64,000 nucleotides of DNA from Candidatus Poribacteria bacterium (lineage in GTDB: Bacteria; Poribacteria; WGA-4E; WGA-3G): positions 1,632,001 to 1,696,000 of the forward strand of contig OZ251518.1 of assembly GCA_965242965.1 (NCBI GenBank), read 5' to 3'. A program made the position numbers and the translations under genes. Of the stretch, positions 31,285 through 62,661 are shown piece by piece; the stretch's first letter is position 1; every line of letters begins with the position of its first letter. The notes beneath the pieces are model-generated. The model worked only from the letters and a program-made list of their open reading frames with translations, had not been told where the DNA came from and ran no database searches.

Positions 31285-32019
31285 ATGAAAATTTTTAAAG
31301 CGACAACCAAACGCGAAACCAGCGAGGCGGCGGCGCACGCTGCACGCACGAAACTCCAAGCGGCAATTGCCGACAATGGATACGCGAACTTCATCGTCGC
31401 GACGGGTGCCTCGCAGTTCAATTTCCTCGCCGCGCTCACCGCCGATACCGCCATTGACTGGGACAAGACGACGATGTTCCATCTAGACGAATACATCGGG
31501 ATTCCAGAGACGCATCCCGCCAGTTTCCGCAAATATCTGCGGGAACGGCTTGTGAATATCGTGCATCCTGGGACGGTGCATTTCCTGAACGGCGAAACAG
31601 ACAATCCACAAGCGGAGTGCGAACGGCTCAACCAGATCATCGCGCGACACCCGATTGACGTGGCGTTCGTCGGCATCGGCGAAAATGGGCACCTCGCCTT
31701 CAACGATCCGCCTGCTGACTTTGAAACCGACGCGCCCTATATTGTCGTCGAATTGGATGAGGCGTGTCGGCTGCAGCAAGTAGGCGAAGGCTGGTTTTCT
31801 GGACTTGACGAGGTGCCGGTGCAAGCCATCTCAATGTCTATCCGCCAGATTCTGAAGGCGAAGGCGATTATTTGCACAGTCCCCGATGAACGGAAAGCGA
31901 TGGCAGTGCGCGATTGCCTCACCGGGGAAATAACGCCGATGCATCCCGCGTCTATCCTGCAGACGCACGCGGATTGCGCGGTATTTTTGGATGCAGGTTC
32001 CGCTTCATTACTTGACTGA
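31285..32019 (+). CDS. nagB: Glucosamine-6-phosphate deaminase family
   Basis: 'ATGASQ', 'FHLDEY', '[13 protein letters not shown]', 'PASILQTH'. Confidence 0.88.
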
Positions 32020-32555
32020 GGGTTTTTCATAAATCGATGGATTCCGGGTAGGAGAGACCTCCTGGTCTCGATGGCTTCCGGTAGGAGAGACCTCCCGGTC
32101 TCGATGCAATAGGGCGGCGCGCCTCCCGGGGCTGCGGCGGCAAAAAGCCCCCTTCATCGTAGGGCGAGGGCCTATCCCTCGCCATGCGTTTGGCTGGCAG
32201 ACTGCATCACCCCTGTAGGTCAGGATCGCCAGATCCTGACCCGTTTGTGATCAGGCGATCACAAACTACAGAGAGGGGAGAACGAAAAAAAACGTCTCTT
32301 GTTCACTTCAGGTCCTAAAGGACTTAAAACGCCACAGTTTGACGATGGAGCTCGCGGGGGACAGGCCCCCGCGCTACGGGAAAATCAAGCCCCGAGGTCT
32401 CTCCTACGGGCAAGAAATCGAGACCGGGAGGTCTCTCCTACCGGGCGGGCGCGCCGCCCTATTGCATCGAGACCTGGTGGTCTCTCCTACGGAGAAGACA
32501 TCAAGACCAGGAGGGCTCTCCTATCGGGAAGGCATTGATATATGAAACACCCTCA
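32017..32555. mobile_element. MITE-like cassette with 15-bp TIRs and REP-module cargo (539 bp)
   Basis: tgagggtttttcata ... tatgaaacaccctca; left TIR supplies the nagB stop codon. Confidence 0.72.
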
Positions 32556-32594
32556 CTTGACCCAACACGAGCCCGTTAGGCGAGGGTTTCAACT

Positions 32595-33329
32595 CTATCG
32601 GCCCGGGACGGTTTTGATTCGCGCCCACGTGACAGCTAGTTTATCTTGCGGCGCAACATCGAACGGAATCGCGCCGATAGCATAGAGAATCGAACGGTGG
32701 ATAAGCTCCCAACCGTCATCGGTTACCATGCTCCAGCCGGTTGAGTGGGGCCAGATATTAACGTGGCGTGCTTTCGTTGCGCCTTTCAAGGTTTTCGCGC
32801 CTTCTTCGTAAACCGAGAGCGCGACGAAATCGTCCATATCCTCGCGCACAGCGAGGACTTCGATCTCGCCTTCAAAGCCGTTGCACGTCATCAGTTGCGC
32901 TGCCGGTTTACTGACGGTAATATCACCCTTGAATCCCTCCGTTATCGGATGCTCGTCGTTGACAATGGTGATTTTGTCACCAGCATCAGAGTTGAAGGTG
33001 CCGTCCGGGGCAAATCCCATGTCATCGTAAGTCCAGGTCTCCGCGTTGACGACAGGGACATTGACATCTTTATACGCATCGAGGATATTCGCGCTAGAGG
33101 TGGATTCCGAAATAAACACGAGATCGATGCCGTTCAGTTTGACGGGATGCTTCTCCAGATGTTCGTGGGCATTGACGACGTAACCCCACTTTTCTAGGTA
33201 TTCTATCAGGAGCGCGTCCTTCGGATCTGGCGCGCCGGAGCCGACAAGCACCAGCGTTTCGCCCTCGGCTACTGCCCAGTGAACGGCGCAAAATAGCACC
33301 AGTAGTGGTAAAAGAAAATAGCGATACAT
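32595..33329 (-). CDS. Secreted hypothetical protein (GATase/ThuA-like fold) with C-terminal 'VAPQDKLAVTWARIK' motif
   Basis: AGGAGG RBS; signal peptide; 'IDLVFISES', 'HPITEGF'; terminal motif. Confidence 0.75.
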   Translation of the reverse strand: MYRYFLLPLLVLFCAVHWAVAEGETLVLVGSGAPDPKDALLIEYLEKWGYVVNAHEHLEKHPVKLNGIDLVFISESTSSANILDAYKDVNVPVVNAETWTYDDMGFAPDGTFNSDAGDKITIVNDEHPITEGFKGDITVSKPAAQLMTCNGFEGEIEVLAVREDMDDFVALSVYEEGAKTLKGATKARHVNIWPHSTGWSMVTDDGWELIHRSILYAIGAIPFDVAPQDKLAVTWARIKTVPGR

Positions 33330-33454
33330 CGAAGAATTTTCCTCCTTTTCGGTTAAAATACAGTGACGTGCGCGTTGTTCCAACCAACTGCACGTTCCCG
33401 AAACTTGAAAAATATTCTATAAAAGTTGACAAAAAATGTCAAGAGGAAAAAGAG

Positions 33455-34309: not shown

Positions 34310-34313
34310 ACCG

Positions 34314-35120: not shown

Positions 35121-35164
35121 GTGAAAAAAAAGGGACGTTTCGTTTTCGGTTTTGGCTGCCGTTT

Positions 35165-35650
35165 CCCCGGTAGGAGAGACCTCCTGGTCTCGATGCGAGC
35201 GATGTCCCCGTAGGAGAGACCTCCTGGTCTCGATGCAATAGGGCGGCAGAAAGCCTCTATCATCGTAGGGCGAGGGCCCTCGGATGCCATACGCGCATCC
35301 GAGGGCCCTCGCCATCGCTCGCGCACTCCAACGCTCGCGGGGGACAGGCCCCCGCGCTACGCGAAAAAAACGGCACTTCATCGTAGGGCGAGGGCCTGTC
35401 CCTCGCCATGCATTTTGCTGGCAGACCTCCTCACCCCTGTAGGTCAGGATCGCCTGATCCTGACCCGTTTGTGATCAGGCGATCACAAACTACAGAATGA
35501 GTGTTGCTATAGACATGTAGGACCTAAAGGACCTAAAACGGCATCTTAACGATGGCAATCGCGGGGGACAGGCCCCCGCGCTACGGTAAAATCAAGACCC
35601 GAGGGCTCTCCTACGGTATTGCATCGAGACCAGGAGGGCTCTCCTACCGA
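35165..35650. repeat. Composite palindromic array (B, B, A2, A, A, C, D, A, B, B)
   Basis: Module order closely parallels 32048-32520. Confidence 0.85.
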
Positions 35651-35706
35651 ACGCCCTATTAGGCACTATCGCCCGCTATCGTTGCCATAGCGGAAGAAAA
35701 AAATGA

Positions 35707-35735
35707 TTGACAACCGATTCATCATTTGCTAAACT
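35707..35735 (+). promoter_or_regulatory. sigma70 promoter of DapA-family/aroA operon
   Basis: TTGACA-N17-TAAACT with TGn. Confidence 0.65.
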
Positions 35736-35771
35736 CTAAAGCACTTAGCCAAACCGACTCAGGAGAGACGA

Positions 35772-37939: not shown

Positions 37940-37974
37940 CCGGAGGATTTCTTAGTCAAAGCACATCCCCTTTT

Positions 37975-41644: not shown

Positions 41645-42265
41645 TGAGGGTGTTTCATAAATCGCTCAACGTCGCGGTGACATGCCCCGCGCTACGATGA
41701 AAAAAAACGCCGCCCCTTTACGTAGGGCGAGGGCCTGTCCCTCGCCATGCTGCGATCGCGGGGGACAGGCCCCCGCGCTACGGTTAAAAACAGTCCCCTT
41801 CATCGTAGGGCTTGGGCCCTCGCATGCCACACGCGCATCCGAGCGGGTTCCCCTCGCCATCGTCCGCGCACTCCAACGATCGCGGGGGACAGGCCCCCGC
41901 ACTACGATGAAAAAACGGTTCTTAGGTCCGTAGGACCTTAATGTCTATAGCACGTGAGGATGCAAAGAACGCTAAGGTCTGTAAGACCTTAGTGTGTTTT
42001 GACGCACTGCGTGGTTTTTATTAAGGACCTAAAGGACCTTGACGTGAGCCGGCACGTTTTTCTATAGACATTAAGGACCTAAAGGACCTAAAACGCCGCT
42101 GCTTGCCGATGGCCAACGCGGGGAACAGGCGGGATAATCGAGACCGGGAGGTCTCTCCTACCGGGAAGAAATCGAGACCAGGAGGTCTCGCCTACGGGGA
42201 CATCACAGGCATTGAGACCAGGAGGTCTCTCCTACGGGTGTGCATCGAAATATGAAACACTCTCA
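41645..42265. mobile_element. MITE-like cassette with 15-bp TIRs (621 bp)
   Basis: ttaac-tgagggtgtttcata ... tatgaaacactctca-attaa; cargo A/A2/D/B modules. Confidence 0.75.
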
Positions 42266-44474: not shown

Positions 44475-44489
44475 TGCACGCAGTTTGTA

Positions 44490-44720
44490 TGAGGGTGTTT
44501 CATATATCGCTCAGCGTCGCGGTGAAACCCGCTCGGATGCGCGTGTGGCATCCGAGGGCCCCGCGCTGCGGTGAAAAAAACGCCGCCCGTTCACGTAGGG
44601 CGAGGGCCTGTCCCTCGCCATGTGTTCGGTTGTCAGAGCACATCACCCCTGTAGAGCAGGAGCACCTGCTCCTGATCCGTTCGGGAGCGGGTGCTCCCGA
44701 ACTACAGAGATGGGCCCTGC
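44490..44720. repeat. TIR half-site plus A2, A, C modules
   Basis: tgagggtgtttcata at 44490; no partner TIR seen. Confidence 0.8.
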
Positions 44721-44732
44721 GATGCTATTTTT

Positions 44733-49674: not shown

Positions 49675-51074
49675 GGTTTGTGATTCCTCCGTTCTTCAGT
49701 TTTAAGTTCTGCCAAGGACAGGCTCCTTGGCGGCTGTTCGGGTGAAAAGAGGGACACGTCAAGCTGTTGCATCGCGCGCGCCACGTATTCTTCCTCTTTT
49801 TCACAGAGGAGAAAATACCTTTCAAGTGCCATCGCTGCTTGTCCAACGGTGCCGCTTCCCCCAAACGGGTCGAACACCAAGTCGCCTTTGAAGGAATAGA
49901 ATTGGATGACGCGCGCCGCCAACTCAACCGGAAAGACAGCCGGATGCACTTTGTCCGATGAGGGATTGATGTGCCAGACATTTGTCTTTTCATAATCCCC
50001 TACGATTCGGCTGGCCTCAATGGTTTCCTCGTCATATTGACGCATGTTCCAATCGAGCAGCTTGTTCGTTTTCTTCCGATAAACCATAACCGATTCGGTG
50101 ACAGAATTCGCCTTGTAACCGAGCGGTTTGCGGTGTTGAAAGAAACCTCCGTTCCGGTTCTTCGCGGCGTAATCCGGTTTCACCCAAGTGATGTCATCAA
50201 TAAACTCCCACCCGATTTCGGTGAGGCGCGGGTGGATGTCGTAAGGGATGGCATACCGCGTGCTCGCATGCGCACGACTGATACGCGGCACGATGACAGG
50301 GGACGTATTCAATACGAAGAACCGTCCCTCTTTCGTAATCCGATGCGTCTCCGCGAAGACAGTTACGAGAAATTCAAGATACGCCTCGTAACTCTCGAAA
50401 ATCGTGTAATCGCGCGCATTGTAGTAGGGCGGCGACGTGAAGGTGAGATGCACCGACGCAGTCGGGATTGCTCGCAAAACTTCACTCACATCCGCACAGA
50501 CAACCACGTTTTTCAGGAAATCGGGACTGAGGGGATGCGGCTGCCGTTGCGCGTTATCCTCAATCCCGCCGCCGGGTGTCAACGCCTGCTTGACGTGTTC
50601 GCGGAGCAATTCGTTCGGGTGTTCGCGCAACGGCGTTAAGCACCGCTGAACTTCCGGATGTTCCTTGAAGCAGAGCAAGCCGCGCACCGCCTGCAGGATA
50701 ATCTTCGGATCTGCGTCTGTCAGGAACTGTTTCAGCACCGGAATCGCCTTCTCGGTTTTGAGCCTGCCGATTGCCGAGACTCCCTCGCGGCGCGCCAGCG
50801 TATTTTTCTCGGCACGCGCGAACGCTGACATCGCCTCTAGGAACGTTTCGTCTTTCAGTTTCCCAACGTTTTTCACGGCGAGACAGCGAATCTTCGGGTT
50901 TGAATGCGCGAACAACGGCAGAAAAACCTCTCCATCAAACCCTTTTGGCAATCTGCCCAGGTTTTCGAGGGTGAAGAGGAGTGTCTGCTCCGGTGTGTTC
51001 GTCGCGAGCACGCGCGCGAAAAATGGCGCGTTCGCCCGCAATTTTTCGTTCTCAATCTGCAATTTCGTTATCAT
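49671..51074 (-). CDS. N4-cytosine DNA methyltransferase (beta class) with N-terminal HEAT repeats
   Basis: 'FTSPPYYN', 'HPAVFP', 'DPFGGSGT'; HEAT-like 'HSNPKIRCLAVKNVGKL', 'DADPKIILQAVRGL'. Confidence 0.88.
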   Translation of the reverse strand: MITKLQIENEKLRANAPFFARVLATNTPEQTLLFTLENLGRLPKGFDGEVFLPLFAHSNPKIRCLAVKNVGKLKDETFLEAMSAFARAEKNTLARREGVSAIGRLKTEKAIPVLKQFLTDADPKIILQAVRGLLCFKEHPEVQRCLTPLREHPNELLREHVKQALTPGGGIEDNAQRQPHPLSPDFLKNVVVCADVSEVLRAIPTASVHLTFTSPPYYNARDYTIFESYEAYLEFLVTVFAETHRITKEGRFFVLNTSPVIVPRISRAHASTRYAIPYDIHPRLTEIGWEFIDDITWVKPDYAAKNRNGGFFQHRKPLGYKANSVTESVMVYRKKTNKLLDWNMRQYDEETIEASRIVGDYEKTNVWHINPSSDKVHPAVFPVELAARVIQFYSFKGDLVFDPFGGSGTVGQAAMALERYFLLCEKEEEYVARAMQQLDVSLFSPEQPPRSLSLAELKTEERRNHKP

Positions 51075-51129
51075 TTTAGACCTTTTTGTCGATTTTTTGA
51101 CAATTTTTCGCAAAAAAGTGCAATTTAAT

Positions 51130-51158
51130 TTGCATTTTGCTCAAAATTGTGGTATAAT
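51130..51158 (+). promoter_or_regulatory. sigma70 promoter of tRNA-Ala
   Basis: TTGCAT-N17-TATAAT with TGn. Confidence 0.7.
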
Positions 51159-51181
51159 TAAAACAATCACATCAATAATGT

Positions 51182-51254
<73 letters not shown>

Positions 51255-51324
51255 CTTCTTCTTTTTGCGCCTTCCTTATCGCCTTCCCATTTTCCAAAGT
51301 CCCGCTAAAAAAACGCTTCCTCTT

Positions 51325-51560
51325 CACGTAGGGCGAGGGCCCTCGGATGCCACACGCGCATCCGAGCGGTTTTCCCTCGCCATGCGTTTTGGTGTCAGCC
51401 CGCATCCCCCCTGTAAGTCAGGATCGCCTGATCCTGACCCGTTCGGGAGCGGGCGCTCCCGAACTACAGAGGTGGGCCCGATGCCTACCGGTAGGAGAGA
51501 CCTCCTGGTCTCGATTAAGCGGCCACGTGTGAGAGCGCGCGGTTTGAAACCGCGTCTACG
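51325..51560. repeat. REP array (A2, C, B, other GTAG palindrome)
   Basis: Same modules as in other arrays. Confidence 0.8.
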
Positions 51561-51584
51561 GTGTTTTTTCTGCGTCCATTTTAA

Positions 51585-51881
51585 TGAGGGTGTTTCATAA
51601 ATCGCCCAACGTCGCGGGGGACAGGCCCCCGCGCTACGATGAAAAAACGCCTCCCCTTTACGTAGGGCGAGGGCCTGTCCCTCGCCATGCGTTTTGGAGT
51701 CAGACTGCATCACCCCCGTAGGTCAGGATCGCCTGATCCTGACCCGTTCGGGTGCAGGCGCTCCCGAACTACAGAGGTGGGCCCGATGCCTTACGGTAGG
51801 AGGGACATCCTTGTCCCGATACGGAAAATCAAGACCAGGAGGTCTCTCCTACCGAACACATTGAAATATGAAACATCCTCG
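51585..51881. mobile_element. MITE-like cassette with TIRs (297 bp)
   Basis: ttaa-tgagggtgtttcata ... tatgaaacatcctcg-ttttaa; cargo A, A, C, B, B. Confidence 0.72.
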
Positions 51882-52066
51882 TTTTAATAGGTTAACATAT
51901 CATATCAAAATTGTCAAGAAAAATCCGCTGATAAACAGAGGCATTCTGTCATCCAAAAACTGAAACGTCCTAATAATTCTTGCTTGAAAAAATGAAATAG
52001 GGTAAAATACGAATAAACGAAAAGGCTTCTTGCTTTAACCTGCGGACATGTGATAGTATAAATCTC

Positions 52067-53068
52067 GTGAACTTAAAAACGCTTTTTGCACAACTTCAAG
52101 GCAAACGGATTACCATTATCGGGGATATCATCGTTGACGCATATCTCTGGGGGGATGTCAACCGAATTTCTCCGGAGGCACCGGTGCCGGTGTTTGACAT
52201 CACTTCGGAGGCGACGGGCTGCGGCGGCGCGGCGAACGTCGCACAGAATGTCGTCAGTGTAGGTGGGAGAGCAGAACTCGTCGGGGTTATCGGGAAGGAC
52301 AGCGCGGGGGAGAAGCTGCGCCGGATGCTCGCTGAGCCGCAAATCGGCGCCACCGGCATCTACACCGACGCGCAGCGGCCTACCAGCACGAAAACCCGCG
52401 CTATCGTCAATGAGAATGGGAAAACGAAAAACGGACAGGGACACCATCTGCTCCGCATTGATAAAGAGGCGAAGCATGCAATTTCCCCAAAGTTGCGGCA
52501 ACACCTGCTGGATGCTGTCACCTCGCGCTTTGCGGAAACGGACGCGATTGTGTTCGCCGATTACGATAAAGGCGTTGTCAGTCCCGAGCTCATCCGCGCT
52601 GTCGTCAAGCAGGCATCGCCGTTAGGCATCCCGATTATCGCTGATCCGAAGCAAAAGAACTTCTGGCACTACACCGGTGTGACCGCCATCACTCCGAATC
52701 AGAAGGAAGCCGGGAGTGCTGTCAAGAAGAAAATGCGCGATGAAGCGTGTCTCGCCGCCGCAGGCAAGGAGATTTTAGAACGGCTCTCCATCTCTGCTGT
52801 CCTGATGACGCGCGATGAGAACGGGATGACGCTCTTCCAACGCAATCGGGTGGAACACCTGCCACCGCAATCGGGCGCGGTTGTTGATGTAACCGGCGCG
52901 GGCGACACGGTAACCGCTGTCTTCGCGCTTGCACTCAGCTGCAAACAGTGCGCCGATATGCGAAGTGCCGCCGAGTTATCGAACCTTGCCGCCGGCATCG
53001 TCGTCGGGAAAATGGGGTGCGCTACCGTCACGCCGACAGAATTACGAGAGGCAATTGAATCGCGATGA
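52067..53068 (+). CDS. rfaE1: D-glycero-beta-D-manno-heptose-7-phosphate kinase (HldE kinase domain only)
   Basis: 'RISPEAPVPV', 'GGAANVA', 'DYDKG', 'TPNQKEA', 'DVTGAGDT'. Confidence 0.92.
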   Translation: MNLKTLFAQLQGKRITIIGDIIVDAYLWGDVNRISPEAPVPVFDITSEATGCGGAANVAQNVVSVGGRAELVGVIGKDSAGEKLRRMLAEPQIGATGIYTDAQRPTSTKTRAIVNENGKTKNGQGHHLLRIDKEAKHAISPKLRQHLLDAVTSRFAETDAIVFADYDKGVVSPELIRAVVKQASPLGIPIIADPKQKNFWHYTGVTAITPNQKEAGSAVKKKMRDEACLAAAGKEILERLSISAVLMTRDENGMTLFQRNRVEHLPPQSGAVVDVTGAGDTVTAVFALALSCKQCADMRSAAELSNLAAGIVVGKMGCATVTPTELREAIESR

Positions 53069-53658
53069 AAACAATTTTCTTGGATAGAGACGGCGTTATC
53101 AACAAAACATCGGAAGAATCCCCCTTCGTCCAAAATCCGCCAAACTACGGCTACGTCCGAACGTGGGAAGGGTTTGATTTTCTGCCGAACTCGCGGAAAG
53201 CCATCAGAAACTTGACACAAAATGGGTATCGTGTTATTGTGGTTACCAATCAGGCTGGCATCGGGAGAGGGCTCTATACTGAAGATGCCCTGAACGATAT
53301 CCACCGTCGGATGTGTGCTGAGGTTGCGGCGGCTGGCGGGAAGATTCACGCTGTCTACTATTGTCCGCATCACCCGGACGATGGATGCGAGTGCCGTAAA
53401 CCGAAGCCGGGGATGTTGCACCGCGCCGCCCGCGAACACGGTATTGATGTATCAAAAACATATTTCATTGGCGATTCACTGGGAGATATTGAGGCAGGAC
53501 ACAGCGCGGGTGCCTCAACGATACTTGTCTTAACCGGGCATGGCCGCGAGAGTTACCGGCGTTATATCCATTCCGAGAACGCAGATGAGAAACCCGACAA
53601 AATCTTTACGAACCTCTACGCAGCAGTATGTTGGCTAACGGAAACCGGCGAACGATGA
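53065..53658 (+). CDS. gmhB: D-glycero-D-manno-heptose 1,7-bisphosphate phosphatase
   Basis: 'FLDRDGVIN', 'VTNQAG', 'CPHHP...CECRKPKPGM', 'IGD'. Confidence 0.93.
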   Translation: MKTIFLDRDGVINKTSEESPFVQNPPNYGYVRTWEGFDFLPNSRKAIRNLTQNGYRVIVVTNQAGIGRGLYTEDALNDIHRRMCAEVAAAGGKIHAVYYCPHHPDDGCECRKPKPGMLHRAAREHGIDVSKTYFIGDSLGDIEAGHSAGASTILVLTGHGRESYRRYIHSENADEKPDKIFTNLYAAVCWLTETGER

Positions 53659-54962
53659 AAAACACGCTTCTTCAGAAAATTGAAACCCGCACCGCTCACG
53701 CCGGTGTCATCGGACTCGGCTATGTCGGATTGCCGCTCACGGTGGCCATCGCGAGTGCCGGCTTCCGCGTCACGGGCATTGACATCTGCGAGGAAAAAGT
53801 CGCGCGGCTGCAACGCGGCACCTCTGATGTCCCTGGTGTCCCCGAAGAACGCCTCGCCGATTTCATCCGTTCTGGACGCATTCAGGTGACAACGGATTAT
53901 GCGGTGCTTCGGGAACTAGATACCGTCAATATCTGTGTGCCAACGCCGCTGAACGAGAACCGAACGCCGGACATGCAGTTCATCAACGCCGCCGTTCATC
54001 AGATTGCGCAGTCCTTGCATCGCGAGCAGCTCATCCTGCTAGAGAGCACCACTTACCCCGGCACCACCGAAGAAATCGTGTTACCGACGCTTGGGACGAA
54101 AGCGCAAGTGGGACGCGATTTTTACCTTGCCTACTCACCCGAACGCATCGAGCCGGGAAACAGCACCTACTTCATGGAGAACACCCCTAAGATTATCGGT
54201 GGTATTACGCCGCAATGCACTAAAATCGCGACGGCGTTCTATGCGCAGTTTATTCATAAAACGCACACCGTCTCCTCACCCCGCGCCGCCGAGATGGTAA
54301 AATTGTTAGAGAATACCTTCCGGAGTGTCAACATCGGGCTCATCAACGAAATGGCACTCATCTGCGATAAAATGGGGTTGGATGTGTGGGAAATTGTTGA
54401 TGCCGCCGCAACGAAACCGTTCGGGTTTATGCCGTTTTATCCTGGGCCCGGCTCTGGCGGACATTGCATTCCCGTAGACGCGCAGTATCTCTCTTGGAAG
54501 GCGCGCGCCTATCATCATCACGCACGTTTTATTGAACTCGCCAGTGACATTAACGGTGCCATGCCGAAATATGTGCTGGATAAAATCGTCCACGCGCTCA
54601 ACCTCCAACGGAAACCGCTCAACGGCTCAAAACTCCTCATCTTGGGAATTGCTTACAAAAAAGAGGTAGGCGACATCCGAGAATCCCCTGCAATTGAAGT
54701 TATTCGGTTAATTCTTGACAAAAAAGCGGATTTCGTGTATCATGATCCTTACGTATCCAATTTTGTGTTGGATGCGCGCGAAACCTATCATTCTCAACCG
54801 CTAACCCCCGCGCTTGTAGCGAATGCAGACGGTGTGGTAATTCTCACAGACCACGGTGGCATCGATTACGAGTGCGTGGTGCGCCACGCGCAAGTCGTGG
54901 TGGATACGCGCAACGCGACGCGCGGCATCCAACACGGCCGCGAGAAAATTATCAAAATTTAA
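53655..54962 (+). CDS. UDP-N-acetyl-hexosamine 6-dehydrogenase (WbpA/WecC family)
   Basis: 'GLGYVGLP', 'CVPTP', 'ESTTYPGTT', 'KLLENTFR', 'GGHCIP', 'DIRESP'. Confidence 0.93.
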   Translation: MKNTLLQKIETRTAHAGVIGLGYVGLPLTVAIASAGFRVTGIDICEEKVARLQRGTSDVPGVPEERLADFIRSGRIQVTTDYAVLRELDTVNICVPTPLNENRTPDMQFINAAVHQIAQSLHREQLILLESTTYPGTTEEIVLPTLGTKAQVGRDFYLAYSPERIEPGNSTYFMENTPKIIGGITPQCTKIATAFYAQFIHKTHTVSSPRAAEMVKLLENTFRSVNIGLINEMALICDKMGLDVWEIVDAAATKPFGFMPFYPGPGSGGHCIPVDAQYLSWKARAYHHHARFIELASDINGAMPKYVLDKIVHALNLQRKPLNGSKLLILGIAYKKEVGDIRESPAIEVIRLILDKKADFVYHDPYVSNFVLDARETYHSQPLTPALVANADGVVILTDHGGIDYECVVRHAQVVVDTRNATRGIQHGREKIIKI

Positions 54963-54988
54963 CGCCTCCCCTTTGGAGGAAACGAACA

Positions 54989-56542
54989 ATGTCAAAGTTG
55001 AACCCGAAATTGCAAATACGGCGGGACCAGCTCGCATGGCTCCTCGGCATGCTTTTGGACGAACGCGCCGTTTTCCAACTGGTAACCCTCTCCGGACTCG
55101 TGCCAGATCTGGACAAACTCTGCTCATTATCGAAGCGAAAATTGTTGGACAACTTAACCGATGCCTTCTTTGTGGAGGCCACCGTTGAAGAAACAACCTG
55201 CGAATTCTTTGCGGAACAAGCCGAGGCGGCGATAGCCCGCGTCGGATACATGGAGGTAGCCGAAATCGAGATGTTTTTTGATACCTCCGAGACCCTCATC
55301 GAGGCAGGGGAATTTGCCGAAGTCGTCTGGGCCCTGTTAACCGACGAACGGACAGCTGTCGCCACCCACGGCTATAGCCTCCTGCATGCCTCACACGCCG
55401 AAGAGTCCGCGCGTTCCGCAGACCGGGCGGCACTCGAAAATCAACTCGCCGCCGAAGAAATCGAAAAAATCCGAGTCGAATACGCCTACAACCTCGAAAT
55501 CGCGCAACAGGAGTTTGACAACCAGACCCGGGAGATGGAGCTCCTCCGACGTAAACGGGCTGAACTGCAGGGGCAGTATACGTCACTTGAGAAGAAGCAC
55601 AAGCAACAAGAGCAACACGTCGCGTTCCTGCTTGCCGAAAACAAGGCGCTGCGGGACAAAGACGAAAGTTATGAAGAAGAACGGAAGCGGTTGAAGATGC
55701 TTGAGCAGGAGAACAACATCTTCCGCGAACGCGAAGAGCAGTATGCCGCCATGAACGAGGAACTGCAGCAGCTCAGGCACGAAAACGAGAGCCTCATCGC
55801 CGCGCACGCTAACACGGCCGTCCGACTCAAGGAATACGAACGGATTAAGGCGGTAAAAGAAACCTTCGGCGTGGATTTGACGTTAGTAGAAGAAGCCGTT
55901 TACAAAGGCAATCAGGGACTGGAGGAACTGCAAACCAGCCTTGACGAGCATTTCAAAGCGTTGCAAAGAAATCAGGAGACCACGCGCAGCACGCTAACAC
56001 GGATTCGCGACACGCTCACCTATTTGGATACGCCGCCGGACCCTGAGGGCAAGCACGCACTCACACCCCAACAGCCGCGCGTCGGCGTGTTCGTGGATGT
56101 CCAGAATATGTTCTATGCCGCGAAGGACCGGTTTGCTCGACGCGTTGACTATATCAAGCTACTCGACCTGATAGTCGGGCCCCGGCACCTAGAGGCGGCG
56201 TATGCCTACGTGGTGCAGATACCGGAGATTAACCAGTCCAGTTTCCTGTCGCTGCTGGAGCATAACGGATACACAATCAAGAGCAAGGATTTGCGACTGC
56301 GCGGCGACGGTTCAGCGAAAGGCGATTGGGATGTCGGCATCGCCGTTGATGTCGTCTCCATGCTCGGCACACTGGACGTTGTCATCCTCGCGAGTGGCGA
56401 TGGGGATTTTTGCCCGCTCGCGGAACTCATCAAACAGCAGGACAAACGGGTGGAGGTGGTGGCGTTTGAACACAATACCTCCATGGATTTACAACACATC
56501 GCAGACCAGTTCTTCCCCATCGGAAACGAACTGTTGATTTAA
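54989..56542 (+). CDS. Coiled-coil protein with C-terminal NYN (LabA/DUF88, PIN-like) domain
   Basis: GGAGG RBS; long heptad region; 'VFVDVQNM', 'KGDWDVGIAVD', 'SGDGDF', 'ADQF'. Confidence 0.88.
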   Translation: MSKLNPKLQIRRDQLAWLLGMLLDERAVFQLVTLSGLVPDLDKLCSLSKRKLLDNLTDAFFVEATVEETTCEFFAEQAEAAIARVGYMEVAEIEMFFDTSETLIEAGEFAEVVWALLTDERTAVATHGYSLLHASHAEESARSADRAALENQLAAEEIEKIRVEYAYNLEIAQQEFDNQTREMELLRRKRAELQGQYTSLEKKHKQQEQHVAFLLAENKALRDKDESYEEERKRLKMLEQENNIFREREEQYAAMNEELQQLRHENESLIAAHANTAVRLKEYERIKAVKETFGVDLTLVEEAVYKGNQGLEELQTSLDEHFKALQRNQETTRSTLTRIRDTLTYLDTPPDPEGKHALTPQQPRVGVFVDVQNMFYAAKDRFARRVDYIKLLDLIVGPRHLEAAYAYVVQIPEINQSSFLSLLEHNGYTIKSKDLRLRGDGSAKGDWDVGIAVDVVSMLGTLDVVILASGDGDFCPLAELIKQQDKRVEVVAFEHNTSMDLQHIADQFFPIGNELLI

Positions 56543-56543
56543 T

Positions 56544-56841
56544 TGAGGGTGTTTCATAAATCGCTCAGCGTCGCGGTGATATGCCCCGCGCTACGGTAAA
56601 AAAAACGCTGCCCCTTCACGTAGGGCGAGGGCCCTCGCATGCCACACGCGCATGCGAGTGGGTTTCCCTCGCCATGCGTTTGGCTGGCAGAGCGCATCAC
56701 CCCTGTAGTTCAGGATCGCCTGATCCTGACCCGTTCGGGAGCAGGCGCTCCCGAACTACAGAAGTGGGCCCGATGCATTCCGGTATTCGCCCGCCCTCCA
56801 AGGCGGGATAGATTCCGAAACGGGGTTATGAAACACCCGCA
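56544..56841. mobile_element. MITE-like cassette with TIRs (298 bp)
   Basis: ttaat-tgagggtgtttcata ... tatgaaacacccgca-tttaa; directly after the NYN-gene TAA. Confidence 0.72.
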
Positions 56842-56958
56842 TTTAATTGAGGTGGCGGTAGGCACGCCTGCCGCCACCGTAACTTCAATCGCAAAAGATT
56901 TACGCAGAAGCGATTGCCGTAGGCGCGGTTTCAAACCGCACCTATCCGGGCGAAAACA

Positions 56959-57972
56959 TTGAATGGCGTAAGTCTTGTAGCAAAGGATAATTTATTGATG
57001 TATACCTTCATCATCATGTCATCGGGCGGTAAATCCTTCCGCCAGCATCCGATTGGCCCGTGGCACCTATTGCTATTCGCGCTGGTTGGCATCCTCGCCA
57101 TTGTCGGGACAGTCGGCGGGATAGGCTATGGGCTCCACGAAAAAAACAGAGCCATCGCGGCTGAAAAACAACGCCAAAATTCATTGGAGAAGATCGAACG
57201 TTTGGAGCAGGAGAAACTCATCGTTGAAACCGAACTTGAAAACGTTGAAGCGGAGATGAACGAGATCCGCGATATGGCCGTGAAGGTCAAGCAGGGATTA
57301 GGGCTCTTCGGGCAAGGCGGCGGCACTTATGAACCGACACCCGACACCCAAACCGAGGCAGGACTTTGGCAACCGGCAAACGCAAACGGCGCGGCCACGG
57401 ATACCGAAACCCACAACGGAAATTCCGAAACGCAAACCATCACGCTGTCCATCCTGAGACAGGAAGTTCAGCCGCTTTACGATTACGTCGTGGAACACCA
57501 AGAACAGGCGAACGGGTATCCTTCGATTCTGCCGGTGCAACTAGAGCAGGGAAATGGAAAGGAGAAGCTAGTTTTCTGGTATTCTTCGCCGTTTGGACAG
57601 CGCATTCATCCCTTAACGAAAAAGCGCGAATTTCACAAAGGATTAGACATCAAAACCCGTCCCGGTGTCCCTGTCATCGCCGCCGCTGATGGCACCGTCA
57701 CCAAAGTGAAACGCGAGGTGTATCTCGGCAAGATGGTAGAGATTAACCATACCGCGCAACGCCTGAAAACCTTGTATGCGCATTTGCAGGGTTACGCCGA
57801 CGGCCTCAAGGCAGGACAGCAGGTGAAACGCGGGCAGGTTATCGGTTATGTCGGGAATACGGGACGCAGCACCGGCGCGCATCTCCACTACGGTGTTTAC
57901 GATTCTCGCCAACGCAAATGGGTGAACCCAATTGGCTATATTCTTGACCAGGAACCAGTTTTCAAGCGATAG
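56959..57972 (+). CDS. M23 family metallopeptidase with TM and coiled coil
   Basis: 'HKGLD', 'YAHL', 'GRSTGAHLHY'; start uncertain (56959 or 56998). Confidence 0.92.
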   Translation: MNGVSLVAKDNLLMYTFIIMSSGGKSFRQHPIGPWHLLLFALVGILAIVGTVGGIGYGLHEKNRAIAAEKQRQNSLEKIERLEQEKLIVETELENVEAEMNEIRDMAVKVKQGLGLFGQGGGTYEPTPDTQTEAGLWQPANANGAATDTETHNGNSETQTITLSILRQEVQPLYDYVVEHQEQANGYPSILPVQLEQGNGKEKLVFWYSSPFGQRIHPLTKKREFHKGLDIKTRPGVPVIAAADGTVTKVKREVYLGKMVEINHTAQRLKTLYAHLQGYADGLKAGQQVKRGQVIGYVGNTGRSTGAHLHYGVYDSRQRKWVNPIGYILDQEPVFKR

Positions 57973-59482
57973 TGGCATAATTTCGGCGTTGTTTATCTCG
58001 CTACCCGGATGCTTGCTCATTTTTCTCGTGAGCGTGGGTATTGCCTTCGCACAATGGCGCACCGCGCCCCATCGAGACCAGGAGGTCTCGCCTACCGGAA
58101 GGTTGCATCGAGACCGGGAGGTCTCGCCTACGGGGACATCAGTCGTCTTCGCACAAGGGGCACAATGGCGCGCCGAGCCCACTGAAAACCTGCCGCTTTG
58201 CACCGCGAAGAACGAACAACACTTCCCAGTCCTCATCACCGATGGCGCGGACGGCGCAATCGTCGCTTGGAGTGATGCACGCAGCGCGAACCGTGACATC
58301 TACGCACAGCGAGTGAACACAAACGGTGAGATGCTCTGGAACCCTGATGGCATCCCTGTTTGCGATACCCCCGCGGCGCAAAGTTGGCCCCTGATCGTCG
58401 AAGATGGAGACGATGGGGCGATTATCGTGTGGGGAGATACGCGCTACGGCAACCAAGACATCTACGCGCAACGCATTGACGCAAACGGCGCGAAGATATG
58501 GCAACCCGAAGGCATCTCTGTCTGCACCGAACCGTCCTTACAAGACGGCCTCCAAGCCATCGCCGATGGCGAAGGCGGCGTGATTGTCACATGGGAGGAC
58601 TGGCGAAACGGCAATCAAGATGTCTATGCACAGAAAATTGACGGTGCGGGGAAACCTGTCTGGCAGGAAAACGGCGTGCCTGCCTACAAAGGTGCTGGAG
58701 ACCAGTACGACCCGGTTTTAATCGCCGATGGCGAAGGCGGCGCGATTTTCGCATGGTGGGACATCAGCACGCCGGATTGGAATATCTTCGCGCAACGTCT
58801 GTCTGCAAATGGCACATCGATGTGGGGAGAAGCACTTCCTATTTGCACAGCGATGGGGAATCAGGGAGGCCCGGCTGTCGTTAGCGATGAAAACGGCGGT
58901 GCGTTCTTCACCTGGTCAGATTATCGCAACGATCCGAATTTCTACACGAGTGCGCAGTTGTATGCGCAGCATGTCAACGCCGATGGCATTGCACTTTGGG
59001 AGCAGGATGGGATTCCTATCAGTGCGTTGGCTGTCAATCAGCAACAGCCTGCCTGTATTCCTGATGGCGCGGGCGGCTTCATCGTCGTTTGGTGGGATGA
59101 GCGCGATATCTTCGCCGACATCTATGCGCAACGGATGAACGCCGCTGGAGAAGTGCTGTGGGCAAAAGCGGGAGTCCCTGTTTGCACCGGTGCCGGTGTC
59201 CAGCGTGAGCCGCAGCTTGTCTCTGCTGGTGATGGCGGCGCGATTGCCTACTGGCTTGATTACCGCGAAGACTTCGGCGATACAACGGAGGATGCCATTT
59301 ATGCGCAACGCCTCAGTCCGAACGGCGAGGCGTTGTGGGAGAAAGATGGCGTGCCAGTCTGCACCGCGAAGAGAGAGCAAATCTCACCGCAGGCGGTTGC
59401 AGCTGGTGTGGGGAAGGCCATCATCGTTTGGAGTGATGCGCGTGGTGAGGATTATGATATTTATGTGCATCGGGTGCCGTGA
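57932..59482 (+). CDS. Secreted beta-propeller-like repeat protein with in-frame REP insertion after the signal peptide
   Basis: About 8 repeats 'DG.GGAI..W.D.R...DIYAQR...G..LW...G.PVC'; 'HRD(Q/R)EVSPTG' x2 insert; start uncertain. Confidence 0.85.
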   Translation: MAIFLTRNQFSSDSGIISALFISLPGCLLIFLVSVGIAFAQWRTAPHRDQEVSPTGRLHRDREVSPTGTSVVFAQGAQWRAEPTENLPLCTAKNEQHFPVLITDGADGAIVAWSDARSANRDIYAQRVNTNGEMLWNPDGIPVCDTPAAQSWPLIVEDGDDGAIIVWGDTRYGNQDIYAQRIDANGAKIWQPEGISVCTEPSLQDGLQAIADGEGGVIVTWEDWRNGNQDVYAQKIDGAGKPVWQENGVPAYKGAGDQYDPVLIADGEGGAIFAWWDISTPDWNIFAQRLSANGTSMWGEALPICTAMGNQGGPAVVSDENGGAFFTWSDYRNDPNFYTSAQLYAQHVNADGIALWEQDGIPISALAVNQQQPACIPDGAGGFIVVWWDERDIFADIYAQRMNAAGEVLWAKAGVPVCTGAGVQREPQLVSAGDGGAIAYWLDYREDFGDTTEDAIYAQRLSPNGEALWEKDGVPVCTAKREQISPQAVAAGVGKAIIVWSDARGEDYDIYVHRVP

Positions 59483-59499
59483 AACCTATTTTTCCTGTA

Positions 59500-60370
59500 T
59501 CGTAGCGCGGGGGCCTGTCCCCCGCGTTGTCCAGCGTCAAGATGCAGTCTTAGGTCCTTTAGGACCTACATGTCTATAGAAAAACGTGTCGTACCGTTTT
59601 TAAGGTCCTTTAGGTCCTTAATAAAAAAGCGCGGCCCTGGTAAAATCTATTAAGGACCTAAAGGACCTTAGGGCTCTTCGTGGGTGTGCGTGCTATAGAC
59701 ATTAAGGTCCTACGGACCTAAATAGTTATCCATTGCAAAATCAGTTTCGTCGTCGCGAGGGGTATAATCCTGAAAATCGTGGAAATCTTGAAAATCCTGC
59801 TTCAGCGCGTTGGCATGGCGCGGGACAGGCCCGCGCCCTACGGTGCGGGGGAGCGATTTGAGAATGTGCTATAGACATTCAGGTCCTACGGCCCTAAAGA
59901 GCAGGTTTTTACAAAAGCGGTTTCGTCGTCGCGCGGGCCCTAATCCTGAAAATCTTGTGAATCTTGTAAATCCTGCTTCAGCGCGTTGGCATGGCGAGGG
60001 ACAGGCCCCCGCCCTACGGTAAGTGGGCGCGATTTGGATCTCTGGCGAGGGCCAGGTTATCGCCCGATGGGTGCGCTCCTACATTAAGGTCTTACAGACC
60101 TTATGTATTGCCAGTTCTGACGTGCTATAGACATGTAGGTCCTACGGACCTAAAGAGCCGTCCATTGCAAAATCAGTTTCGTCGCCGCGCGGGGTATAAT
60201 CGTGAAAATCGTGGAAATCGTGAAAATCCTGCTTCAGAGCGTTGGCATGGCGCGGGACAGGCCCGCGCCCTACGGTAAGGGCGCGCGATTTGAGTCTGGC
60301 GCGGGACAGGCCCGCGCCCTACGGTGCGCGCGGGCGCGATTTGTCTGACGCGGGACAGGCCCGCGCCAAA
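59500..60370. repeat. Large array with three direct copies of a ~153-bp D-E-A composite unit
   Basis: tgctatagacat...aggtcctacgg...gtttcgtcg...aatcctgcttcag..gttggcatggcg.gggacaggccc.cgccctacgg at about 59691, 59867, 60123. Confidence 0.88.
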
Positions 60371-60376
60371 CGGTTA

Positions 60377-62314
60377 TCAGTTCGACAATTCAGCCAACCG
60401 AGTCAAATGCCAATTCGCATCCTCCAATGCCTCATAGACGACACCGCCTTCAACGTTGGCAGGCATCGGAAGGCCCAGCAGATAGCAAAGCGTCGGCGCG
60501 ACATCGACGACGCGAACTTGCCGCTGTAAAGTAACCCCTGCCCGAACGCCAGCACCCGATAGGATAAACGTTGAATGCTGCCCACCAATGCCGAAACTGA
60601 CAGAAGGCAACTGCTTCCCATGCGCTCCATCAAATTCTGGCAGCAGCGCGTAGACAACGTCTCCGACGAGCTCGCCGTGTAAATTGAGCATCTCCGCGTC
60701 CGCGCGCGTCACGGCTAAGGTGAAGGGATGTCTGCCGGTTTCTGCATCTTGATAAGCGTGGAGCGCGGCGATAATTTCACGTTGCGTCGCCTCATAGGCT
60801 TCCGGTACGACGATACCGTTCGGTTCGCGGCCGGCTAAATTGATGAAGATATGCACCAGCCCAACGTTGACAGCGCGGGTTTTGCTCCAGTCGATTTCCC
60901 CGTTCTCAGTGCGGACGATGAACCCTGTCTCCTCTAATACCTTCTCAATATCGACAGCGCGAAATTGGTTCGGCGTGCCACCGTGGTCGGAACAGACGAG
61001 GATGACGGTGTCTTCATCGGCAAGTTGCATCAACCTGCCTATCATCCTATCGACGGATTCATACGTGCGGCGCAAACCTTCACGACACCGGTGGATGGTT
61101 TCCGAGGCGGCACCACTGAGCTCATCCGCTTGGCTGAGGAAAAAATGACTGGCGTAGTCGGGCGCATGCGTCTCTACCATCAGCACATTCCACTCGTCGT
61201 CGTTTTTGGCGAGGTGCGTCGCCACATCGGCGAGGCGTTGGTGGTGATACTCCAGCAGCTCAAAATAGGTGTCGTCATCAAGCTGCCCGAGCGCGTCGCG
61301 CGCCGGATTCTGAAGGAACGAACCGATTTCTTCGTCGATTGTCGTTGCGACGGCTGAAGGTACCGTGTATCCTTCGCGGGGCCAGATCTGCGGCACGAAC
61401 AACTCAAACGCGTCAGCGTTCGGTGTCAGCGTGACCAGTTTCATCCGAACGTAGCCTTCCACTTCTGCGCCGTCAATTTCAAATGCGTCTAGCCACCAGT
61501 CGCTCCACTCTCCCACGCCGAGTTCCGCAACGACATCGTCACCGGAACGGGTTCGGCAGATGCGAATCGTGTCGTATCCGTTCTCGCCATCGGCGTAGAT
61601 GAGGCCGTAAAACGGCTTCGGTGTCCCGGTTTTACCGCGGTTCATATTCTCTCTGCCTCGCGCCAGCGGTTGGATGGTTAACTCAACTTCCAGCGCGGGT
61701 TCTTGTGAATCTGGCAGTGCATTCCATTTGTCCGCTTCAATAGGCTGAAGCGTCACAGGATCGATGTGCCGAATTTTCTGCAGCGCGCTCGGGTCTAACG
61801 TTTCCGGGTCGCGTTGGCCGCCAATGGGACGTGGTGCCCACTTCCCGGCGACGAAAAGGTGATACCCGGCAATCTGATGGTGATTGGATACACCGGGTCC
61901 CGTGCCTTCCACCTGAATCCCCGTTGTGACGGTAGGCGGCCAGGACATCTCCCATTTTACCAAAATCGGTTTACCACCGGCGCGTTCAACGAGATTCCAC
62001 AGGTATTCGGATTGACAGAGGCTGGTGTTGATACCCCACACCGTCTTGTCGAGTTGTTCGCCGAGGGCACGAATGTTAAAATCCATCACTTTGTGCGTGC
62101 CGGGCCATGAGCCGGTGGAGAGTGCAGTCCAGCCGGGTGGTGTGAGCGTCGGGAATACGCCTATCATCGGGCGATACACGCCGGTGTTGAGGAGGTGTCC
62201 CATATTCGGCGCGTGTCCCCAGTCAATAGAATTTTTGACGAGTTCCATGCTTGCCCCGTCCATGCCGATGATAATGGCGCGTTTCGCGGGTGCAAGGTGT
62301 GTCTGTCTTTTCAT
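60377..62314 (-). CDS. Alkaline phosphatase superfamily type I phosphodiesterase/nucleotide pyrophosphatase
   Basis: 'IIGMDG', 'PTLTPPGWT...TG..PG.H', 'SDHG', 'INLAGREP.G', 'DVAPTL'. Confidence 0.9.
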   Translation of the reverse strand: MKRQTHLAPAKRAIIIGMDGASMELVKNSIDWGHAPNMGHLLNTGVYRPMIGVFPTLTPPGWTALSTGSWPGTHKVMDFNIRALGEQLDKTVWGINTSLCQSEYLWNLVERAGGKPILVKWEMSWPPTVTTGIQVEGTGPGVSNHHQIAGYHLFVAGKWAPRPIGGQRDPETLDPSALQKIRHIDPVTLQPIEADKWNALPDSQEPALEVELTIQPLARGRENMNRGKTGTPKPFYGLIYADGENGYDTIRICRTRSGDDVVAELGVGEWSDWWLDAFEIDGAEVEGYVRMKLVTLTPNADAFELFVPQIWPREGYTVPSAVATTIDEEIGSFLQNPARDALGQLDDDTYFELLEYHHQRLADVATHLAKNDDEWNVLMVETHAPDYASHFFLSQADELSGAASETIHRCREGLRRTYESVDRMIGRLMQLADEDTVILVCSDHGGTPNQFRAVDIEKVLEETGFIVRTENGEIDWSKTRAVNVGLVHIFINLAGREPNGIVVPEAYEATQREIIAALHAYQDAETGRHPFTLAVTRADAEMLNLHGELVGDVVYALLPEFDGAHGKQLPSVSFGIGGQHSTFILSGAGVRAGVTLQRQVRVVDVAPTLCYLLGLPMPANVEGGVVYEALEDANWHLTRLAELSN

Positions 62315-62341
62315 GTTTTCTCCTTGTATGCCACATTAACC

Positions 62342-62661
62342 TGGGGGTGTTTCATATATCAATGCCTTCCCCGTAGGAGAGCCCTCCCGGTCTCGATTTC
62401 TCCGCCCGGTCTCGATGCAAGCGATGTCCCCGTAAGAGAGACTTGTGAAAAAATGTCACAGTACCGTAGCGCGGGGGCCCTCGGATGCCACACGCGCCTC
62501 CGAGCGGGTTTCCTCCGCGAATTTCCGGTAGACCGAAGCACGGCGAGGGACAGGCCCTCGCCCTACGCAGAAGGGGGCGTTTTTCGACCAAGAAACCCTC
62601 CCGTTACCGTAGCGCGGGGGCCTGTCCCCCGCGACGTTGAGCGATTTATGAAACACCCTCA
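62342..62661. mobile_element. MITE-like cassette with TIRs (320 bp), inverted relative to 41645 and 51585
   Basis: ttaacc-tgggggtgtttcata ... tatgaaacaccctca; cargo B, B', A2, A, A. Confidence 0.72.

Follow-up and report, generated by a model that had tools for sequence, protein, structure and literature searches.

The locus examined here raises the question of which mobile system has spread a set of short cassettes that are bounded by insertion-sequence-like ends and filled with GTAG-headed REP hairpins. The cassettes lie in a window of 64,000 nucleotides, the whole stretch from position 1,632,001 to 1,696,000 of contig OZ251518.1 of a Candidatus Poribacteria bacterium. Very probably, they represent a single family of MITEs that descends from a 1.1-kb IS982-like DDE insertion sequence (IS) of Poribacteria, with the movement, history and diversification proposed below. 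An earlier description made from the letters alone (the sequence-only reading) had taken them for non-autonomous transposons bounded by terminal inverted repeats (TIRs), and this view is borne out by (i) target duplications, (ii) empty sites in related genomes, and (iii) a partner IS with the same ends.

The 15-bp end has 14 matches with at most two mismatches in the window, as compared with 0.02 expected by chance, and none of 100 shuffled controls reaches this number. All 14 coordinates assigned by the sequence-only reading proved exact, with five convergent pairs and four unpaired ends (Table 1). Across the 5.7-Mb genome, the end is matched 983 times (450 matches without a mismatch, 377 with one, and 156 with two), and each position of the 15-bp core is 84-99% conserved. 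A genome-wide scan for pairing, orientation and spacing, which that reading had suggested, shows that convergent pairs dominate: 287 of the 346 adjacent +/- neighbours are less than 1500 bp apart, mostly 200-800 bp, versus 48/346 for the -/+, 22/143 for the +/+, and 24/147 for the -/- orientation. The suspected polarity of the two end types also holds, since type A ends are paired with B1 ends in 65 cases and with B2 ends in 40, versus 6 A-A pairs. The likeness of these ends to the IS ends extends to 18-22 nt; the first 22 nt of the A end coincide with the IRR of the L142 group of ISs, and the IRL sequence of the parent IS is kept at 26 ends. Judging from these sequence matches, the two end types are simply the IRR- and IRL-derived ends of the parent IS.

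Table 1. Elements and unpaired ends in the window (positions are those of the window)
Feature	Position	Strand	Structure	Flanks and remarks
MITE copy, 539 bp	32017..32555	.	both ends type B2	6-bp direct repeat CTTGAC at 32011-32016 and 32556-32561
MITE copy, 621 bp	41645..42265	+	left end A (IRR-like), right end B2	no intact target duplication
MITE copy, 297 bp	51585..51881	+	A end, R4, R3, R2, R1, two R5 hairpins, B2 end	target duplication TTTTAA; belongs to 8-copy cluster
MITE core without any TIR	51301..51584	+	R3 with nested hairpin, R2, R1, R5	
MITE copy, 298 bp	56544..56841	+	A end to B1 end; interior near-canonical	target duplication TTTAAT at 56538-56543 and 56842-56847
MITE copy, 320 bp	62342..62661	-	left end B2, right end A	no intact target duplication
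Truncated MITE	44490..44725	+	A end, R4 with nested hairpin, R3, R1-type doublet	B end missing
One-ended element	26502..27060	+	parent-IS left-end sequence kept (GTTGTCAAAA), then long REP array	no second TIR
One-ended element	31003..31272	-	IRL-like end at 31258-31272	REP interior reaches end of neighbouring gene
Unpaired B2-type end	2641..2760	+	two R5 hairpins after end	

The only result of an Rfam search is a tRNA at 51182-51254.

The TTAA that had been noticed 0-2 nt outside the ends is seen genome-wide as T, T, A and A at 74, 64, 74 and 60%, respectively, in positions -5 to -2. This tetranucleotide forms the middle of a target duplication, nTTAAn, which measures 6 bp and sometimes 7 bp and not, as had been supposed, TTAA or 3 nt. 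Among the 287 pairs, perfect direct repeats of 6, 7 and 8 bp flank 75, 32 and 4 pairs, whereas shuffling of the partners yields 1.6, 0.44 and 0.03. Altogether, the duplication is perfect in 111 pairs and has one mismatch in 52 (2.1 and 16.8 in the control); the remaining 124 pairs have no recognizable duplication, which counts against the MITE interpretation. Perfect duplications are found in three of the five window copies and at rates of 32-50% in every length class.

Comparison of orthologous loci revealed clean empty sites, with breakpoints at the element ends, for two of the window copies. At the place of the 56544 element, both congeners, G001 and G002, have a single TTTAAT, and at the place of the 32017 element, G001 has a single CTTGAC. 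The 56544 site is also bridged in a strain with about 98% identity, where one assembled contig of run X1 joins 56548 to 56857; that the strain evidence consists of this one contig and not of reads counts against the interpretation. Except for this contig, those of four runs over 44001-64000 break at repeats. A search of metagenome contigs with the gene ending at 56542 returned no strain-level relative, the best matches being 59% at full length and 78% for a fragment. The 51585 element is absent from G002 and has another REP array in its place in G001, there is no TIR at the orthologous place of the 62342 element in either congener, and for the flanks of the 41645 element no placement was found in the two genomes. 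Over 38 kb of synteny, 13 TIRs are observed here, two weak ones in G001 and none in G002, and the genome-wide totals with at most one mismatch are 827, 8 and 1, respectively. When 39 MITE loci were compared with 400 kb of G002, which holds a single TIR, 19 loci could be placed and none had a TIR. At nearly all of these 19 loci, the intergenic DNA of G002 is too diverged for clean breakpoints, which again counts against the interpretation; 1736428-1737225 looks clean by eye.

The search for a transposase flanked by the same TIRs identified the partner IS in other Poribacteria. The IS copy L008 is 1109 bp long, has identical TIRs and contains a 353-aa ORF, whose product matches Pfam DDE_Tnp_1_3 above the threshold (39.1 bits, cut-off 27). 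Among NCBIfam models, IS982 (NF033520) matches best, at 54.9 bits where the cut-off is 130, and the parent IS is therefore classed as IS982-like only. Residues D171, D234 and E290 are invariant in six of six aligned homologues of 40-80% identity, two loci with a stop codon having been left out. Thus, the initial guess of an IS5/IS1182-type partner was right as to the DDE clan, and the partner itself belongs to the DDE_Tnp_1_3/IS982-like type. The IS982 family, as described in ISfinder, comprises elements of about 1 kb with a single ORF, a DDE triad and a short target duplication, and the parent IS agrees with this description, being mostly 1104-1126 bp long with one ORF of 330-353 aa. Public genomes contain 78 loci of this IS, 76 of them titled Poribacteria; a TIR pair is present at 68, 40 of them flanked by a perfect 6-bp duplication and 4 by one of 7 bp. 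The G022 genome carries seven identical intact copies, with duplications of 6 bp in five and 7 bp in two.

The genome under study is nearly closed (94.66% complete by marker genes), and profile searches of it with PF01609 (DDE_Tnp_1) and PF13612 (DDE_Tnp_1_3) gave no match. Using tblastn with five homologues, we found only fragments, at C1:2371347-2371746, and weak N-terminal pieces at two (L133 as query) to four (L008 as query) of the seven places that keep 130-140 bp of the IS left end. The lack of an intact transposase counts against the MITE interpretation and means that current mobility is unproven. No transposase is encoded in the window, as was originally noted, and in the MITE copies tblastn with the IS protein finds only the first codons, in the IRL-type ends. 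Five large TIR pairs with matching flanks (2.4-5.5 kb) were considered as autonomous copies and rejected, having no transposase inside; their genes are those for ankyrin, PhoU, methylase, LRR and Type ISP proteins. One IRL-type and one IRR-type end, with a duplication of 7 bp, enclose a methylase-nuclease gene. It is scarcely credible that the 15-bp motif instead serves protein binding or regulation in a BIME-like mosaic, nothing moving as a TIR-bounded unit: the copies are indeed located at gene ends, and enterobacterial BIMEs mix REPs with conserved non-REP motifs (PMC2817692, in the excerpts available), but the target duplications, the empty sites and an IS that shares these ends and codes for a DDE transposase all contradict it.

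The interior of the MITE has a canonical form of 269 bp with four GTAG REP hairpins and one other, non-GTAG hairpin, in the order IRR end, R4, R3, R2, R1, non-GTAG hairpin, IRL-side end. The genome contains 240 full-length copies of a 157-bp core, and at least one GTAG hairpin is present in 266 of the 287 pairs. The sequence-only reading, which held that the cargo differs in every copy and that no constant interior exists, unlike in ordinary MITEs, was thus overstated: 67 of the 287 pairs fall into four colinear clusters (48, 8, 6 and 5 copies), and 203 have no colinear partner. Interiors differ because REPs have been added to the canonical form, nested in it or duplicated. Exact-motif architecture strings, 236 of them distinct among the 287 copies, were dropped as a measure, since point mutations inflate this number. 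The closest copies are 96% identical, with a median best match of 89%; the nearest relative of the 56544 copy, although this copy is absent from the ~98% identical strain, is at 91.9%, and both findings count against the MITE interpretation. Compared with a BIME, that is, an alternating REP mosaic with conserved linkers and without TIRs or duplication, the interior is similar, yet the unit as a whole has IS-type TIRs and target duplications.

Not every one of the 240 full-length cores is accompanied by two TIRs: for 79 there is none within 400 bp, and for 75 there is a single one. The 79 TIR-less cores, among them the one that adjoins the 51585 element on its left, count against the MITE interpretation and would suit an alternative that we regard as improbable, namely, that a multi-REP composite of BIME- or REPIN-like type, moved by RAYT or by recombination, spread independently and acquired the IS ends later, perhaps repeatedly. 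The central R2/R1 doublet, moreover, has the GTAG...CTAC layout of the doublets flanking the RAYT gene. However, TIR-less cores resemble the query less closely than the others do (median 80% versus 86%, a comparison biased by the query itself being a TIR-bounded copy), as expected of decayed copies, and the unpaired ends in the window belong to visibly truncated MITEs. The distribution among relatives also argues against an older core: G002 has single REPs and no composite core, the longest core matches among those listed for G001 include the two TIR-bounded elements, and G022, with its intact IS, has neither REPs nor core.

The assignment of the interior to GTAG REPs of a second system, of the HUH/RAYT type, is supported as well. 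With a GTAG head and a perfect stem of at least 8 bp as the criterion, the genome has 5,567 hairpins, a population distinct from the MITEs and far larger than theirs, the main families comprising 100-1,600 copies each, and two families are mostly found in the MITE-core context. A single RAYT gene (C1:~3147499-3147970; NF047646, 120.3 bits, cut-off 80) has R1-type REP arrays on both sides, and the only other Y1 match in the genome belongs to an IS605 remnant that adjoins a TnpB gene. R1 and R2 represent the kind of REP that flanks this RAYT.

The sequence-only reading had further proposed that the carriers collect or shuffle REPs. In its active form, in which inserted TIR carriers serve as preferred landing sites for RAYT-mobilized REPs and gain most of their variable cargo in place, we find this rather unlikely. 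Hairpins are denser inside TIR pairs (7.1 per kb) than genome-wide (0.98 per kb), but the latter value includes coding DNA and hence gives no measure of enrichment relative to intergenic DNA elsewhere; moreover, 85% of all hairpins occur outside such pairs. Active collection would agree with the correlation of element length with hairpin count (r 0.53), with a 25-nt hairpin nested in REP loops at 321 places, and with the RAYT being flanked by the R1 type, the family at the core centre. It would also agree with the copies without a colinear partner having duplications as frequently as canonical ones (perfect in 39% of singleton and 40% of clustered copies). On the other hand, variant interiors form multi-copy subfamilies (8, 6 and 5 copies), which must have transposed as such. 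With respect to collecting or shuffling in general, the data are compatible both with gain after insertion and with variation before transposition.

For the preferred interpretation, a MITE family of IS982-like origin, we propose the following scenario. A transposase supplied in trans would bind the ~18-22 bp TIRs (TGAGGGTGTTTCATAAAT...) and direct insertion into AT-rich nTTAAn sites, duplicating 6 (sometimes 7) bp; such sites often occur at stop codons, and the copies therefore abut gene ends. The transposase gene would have given way to a group of clustered host REP hairpins, so that the REPs travel as passengers of a DDE transposon. A burst to hundreds of copies and about 1000 ends probably took place in this one lineage after its split from G002, which retains a single IS remnant. 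The parent IS would have decayed after the burst and its transposase vanished, leaving the copies stranded unless a transposase arrives from elsewhere. Diversification would have occurred partly before transposition, as the variant subfamilies suggest, and probably partly in place. We tentatively consider, as a possibility that falls somewhat short of even, two routes of REP spread, in which the R1 and R2 copies spread mostly by hitch-hiking in the DDE-type MITE and not by RAYT, a cut-and-paste or copy-out transposon has done most to amplify REP clusters and to seed them across the genome, and the same ends can enclose whole genes. By this history, repeats would have come to saturate the intergenic DNA of an uncultivated sponge symbiont. 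The elements also show that REP hairpins, usually thought to be tied to a tyrosine transposase of their own, can be carried around a genome and copied by an unrelated DDE transposon in which they are passengers.

Among the papers searched, none describes MITEs or REPs in Poribacteria, nor a cluster of REPs enclosed in a DDE-type MITE. As far as the available excerpts of the sources show, three known systems share some of these features. The ISCca4-derived MITE of about 240 bp from the Cardinium endosymbiont of a spider (PMC9769881) similarly occurs in a host-associated bacterium, and its ~1.1-kb single-ORF DDE parent, of the IS982 family and with the DDE_Tnp_1_3 domain, has ends that also bound short, gene-less, lineage-specific high-copy derivatives. 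In Poribacteria, by contrast, the transposase scores below the NCBIfam cut-off for IS982, the genome studied here has lost the parent IS, and the interior is a REP cluster and not IS-derived sequence. The GTAG REPs, REPINs and BIMEs associated with RAYT (Nunvar 2010, PMC2817692; Bertels and Rainey 2011, PMC3116915; Di Nocera 2013, PMC3733652) have in common with our case GTAG-headed GC-rich hairpins of several families per genome, inverted doublets, mosaic arrays and one RAYT gene flanked by its REPs. They are not known to have DDE-type TIRs or a 6-bp duplication, whereas in our case four REPs form a defined cluster that is enclosed by IS ends and has inserted as a unit. Classical bacterial MITEs such as NEMIS/Correia, RUP, ERIC and Nezha (excerpts of PMC3733652) likewise have TIRs of 15-30 bp, lack coding capacity, occupy intergenic positions beside genes and are mobilized by the transposase of a related IS; their interiors are near-constant, unlike those of the 203 copies without a colinear partner, and the sizes here are continuous from about 200 to 800 bp.

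Another genome, G032, carries six copies of a related IS (protein 45% identical) and a sister MITE of the same IS family, with a related TIR (TGAGGGGTGCTCATAA) and elements of 245-463 bp. In contrast to the MITE of the window, its interior is constant and free of arrays of GTAG hairpins (0-1 GTAG per copy in the eight examined), and the REP filling is thus specific to the lineage of the genome studied here and G001. Together, G002, where no burst occurred, and G032, where the interior is ordinary, provide natural controls for the effects of the burst on gene ends, transcription termination and genome stability.

The 15-bp motif TGAGGGTGTTTCATA has 14 matches in the window at no more than two mismatches (0.02 expected), each exactly where a sequence-only reading had placed it. 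They form five convergent pairs (297-621 bp) and four unpaired ends that are truncated or one-ended cassette copies. The whole genome (5.70 Mb in two contigs, 54% G+C) holds 983 matches, all on the main contig C1; 450 of these are perfect, 377 have a single mismatch and 156 have two. Adjacent matches were less than 1500 bp apart in 287 of 346 +/- combinations, 48 of 346 -/+, 22 of 143 +/+ and 24 of 147 -/-. The sizes of the pairs are continuous between about 200 and 800 bp and peak at 200-300 bp.

The TIR-bounded cassettes are transposons. The consensus outside the motif is A.TTAAn, and nTTAAn is the sequence of the duplicated target. Perfect direct repeats of 6, 7 and 8 bp flank 75, 32 and 4 of the 287 pairs, respectively, and 1.6, 0.44 and 0.03 pairs with shuffled partners; 52 further pairs have a repeat with one mismatch and 124 have none, the control giving 2.1 perfect and 16.8 one-mismatch repeats. 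Empty sites were found in two genomes of the same genus, G001 and G002, where window positions 26001-64000 are syntenic with one G001 contig and the G002 chromosome (76-92% identity in aligned stretches). At the 56544 site, both relatives carry the target TTTAAT in single copy, followed directly by the right flank, and at the 32017 site of G001 the right flank comes next after CTTGAC. Across these 38 kb, TIR matches at up to three mismatches number 13 in the window, two in G001 (each with three mismatches) and zero in G002. The 56544 copy is missing from a contig of sponge-metagenome run X1: with 30 differences over 1672 aligned bases, the contig follows the window from 54876 to 56548 and picks it up again at 56857, 14 letters separating the two parts. 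A 400-kb stretch of G002 with one TIR match in total accommodated 19 of 39 MITE loci from the interval between 1.35 and 2.0 Mb; most of the intergenic regions concerned have diverged too far for clean breakpoints. Counting matches with one mismatch or fewer, the window's genome has 827 copies of the motif, G001 eight, G002 one and each of 38 further relatives 0-15.

Features located in the window's genome (G000) and its relatives
Feature	Location	Remarks
MITE copy	window, 32017 (left end)	perfect 6-bp duplication CTTGAC
MITE copy	window, 41645 (left end)	no duplication
MITE copy	window, 51585 (left end)	perfect 6-bp duplication TTTTAA; adjoined by a core without TIR
MITE copy	window, 56544 (left end)	perfect 6-bp duplication TTTAAT
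MITE copy	window, 62342 (left end)	no duplication
tRNA gene	window, 51182-51254 (+)	Rfam RF00005, 63.8 bits; immediately precedes the TIR-less REP core and the 51585 MITE
Nested 25-nt hairpin, examples	window, 44521-44560 and 51370-51400	
Tandem REP arrays in G001:C137	orthologous to window 51301-51881 and 62342-62661	another REP family (GTAGGCGCG...) where G000 has MITEs
Transposase fragments	G000:C1:2371347-2371746	tblastn
IS200/IS605-type element (L006)	G000:C1:3123891-3127127	decayed Y1 transposase (2 TGA stops); intact 408-aa TnpB (NF040570, 195 bits)
Gene-sized TIR segment	G000:C1:3389586-3391968	L003 101-2483; 2383 bp; 7-bp flanking repeats
Gene-sized TIR segment	G000:C1:1154351-1157376	7-bp flanking repeats
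Gene-sized TIR segment	G000:C1:1404311-1409766	7-bp flanking repeats
Sister MITE, about 245-310 bp	G032, C1:809987-810353 (L215)	example; seven more loci, L216-L222

The autonomous partner of the cassettes was recognized in another genome, G022, in which a single 353-aa ORF sits between two perfect ends 1109 bp apart. The protein matches Pfam DDE_Tnp_1_3 (39.1 bits, cut-off 27) and DDE_Tnp_1, both of which are also carried by its Atlas neighbours; its top NCBIfam model is IS982, at 54.9 bits and under the cut-off of 130. Residues D171, D234 and E290 are invariant among six homologues (40-80% identity). Seven identical copies in G022 are inserted at AT-rich sites with duplications of 6 bp (five copies) or 7 bp (two). 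A scan of public genomes yielded 78 loci, of which 76 come from records with Poribacteria in the title; a TIR pair is present at 68, and among these a perfect 6-bp duplication is seen at 40, a 7-bp one at 4 and none at 24. Thus, the ends of the cassettes and their duplication lengths, 6 bp and less often 7 bp, are those of this IS. In its initial 22 nt the A end is identical to the right end of an IS subgroup, L142, and 26 cassette ends retain IS left-end sequence, which accounts for the end polarity noticed from sequence alone and borne out by the pairings (A-B1 65 and A-B2 40 vs A-A 6).

The window had been said to hold no transposase, and profile searches with PF01609 and PF13612 gave no match anywhere in its genome. 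Using five homologues as tblastn queries, we obtained only the tabulated fragments and weak N-terminal ones. Seven places preserve the left end of the IS over 130-140 bp (70-75% identity), and the weak fragments fall at two (L133) to four (L008, the G022 IS) of these; the sole TIR of G002 is likewise an IS left-end remnant.

The interior of the cassettes consists of GTAG REP hairpins: at least one with a perfect stem is present in 266 of the 287 pairs (median 3). Clustering by single-HSP comparison at 90% or more reciprocal coverage gave clusters of 48, 8, 6, 5 and 3 copies and seven of two copies, leaving 203 singletons. The 269-bp consensus of the largest cluster comprises the A end, R4 (GTAGCGCGGGG...) reversed, a linker, R3 (GTAGGGCGAGGG...), a linker, R2 (GTAGGTCAGGATC...), R1 (GTAGTTCGGGAGC...) reversed, a linker, a non-GTAG hairpin and the B end; smaller clusters depart from it either in having extra GTAGGAGAGACC hairpins or in bearing a 25-nt hairpin inside the loop of R4. 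The latter hairpin (CTCGGATGC..GCATCCGAG) is nested in R3 or R4 loops at 321 places genome-wide, giving 'long' and 'short' forms of one REP.

The REPs are a population separate from, and larger than, the TIR cassettes. The genome contains 5,567 GTAG hairpins whose stem is perfect over at least 8 bp; 847 (15%) of these fall within the TIR pairs, and the pairs make up 2.1% of the genome. The 157-bp core of the interior occurs 240 times at full length, with TIRs within 400 bp on both sides in 86 cases, on one side in 75 and on neither in 79. A multi-module core context was found for 53-75% of R1 and R2 hairpins, 20% of R3 and 1% of R4, which lies outside the core query. A single RAYT gene (NF047646, 120 bits, cut-off 80) has R1-type REPs on either side; a second Y1 match is an IS605 remnant beside a TnpB gene. 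G002 carries single REPs and lacks the composite core; a few cores occur in G001, two of them within TIR pairs; and in G022, where the IS is intact, both REPs and core are absent. In the G001 arrays, CATCTTAA flanks the REP and is repeated with every unit, which suggests growth by tandem duplication.

An IS982-like IS probably gave rise, in the lineage of the window's genome and G001, to a derivative with a REP-cluster interior; amplification of this derivative in trans would then have produced hundreds of copies before the IS decayed. A recent burst would account poorly for the low identity between copies (96% in the best pairs) and for the polymorphic 56544 copy, which has no close relative (91.9%). 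Interior variation probably comes from REP addition, nesting and duplication. Some of it is older than transposition, because variant subfamilies exist; the remainder may or may not have arisen in place, since canonical and singleton copies have target duplications equally often. MITEs are already known as a class, and earlier reports describe MITEs derived from IS982 elements (PMC9769881) and GTAG REPs with RAYTs (PMC3733652, PMC2817692, PMC3116915); a literature search for Poribacteria MITEs, or for REP clusters packaged in DDE MITEs, returned no description.

A sister IS in the genome G032 gave rise to a MITE of the ordinary type, whose interior is constant and free of REPs. The transposase of this sister IS is 45% identical, its TIR is TGAGGGGTGCTCATAA, and the IS is present in six copies, with 55 TIR matches in that genome.

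TIR pairs may have moved genes too. Perfect 6-8 bp repeats flank 5 of 227 +/- combinations 1.5-6 kb apart (1.55 expected). Three gene-sized segments lie between outward-facing TIR pairs; the tabulated 2383-bp one is bounded by an IRL-type end on its left and an IRR-type end on its right, and encloses a gene for a 528-aa methylase/Mrr-nuclease fusion. In G001 and G002 the orthologous position lacks this segment and holds 108-166 bp of other DNA.
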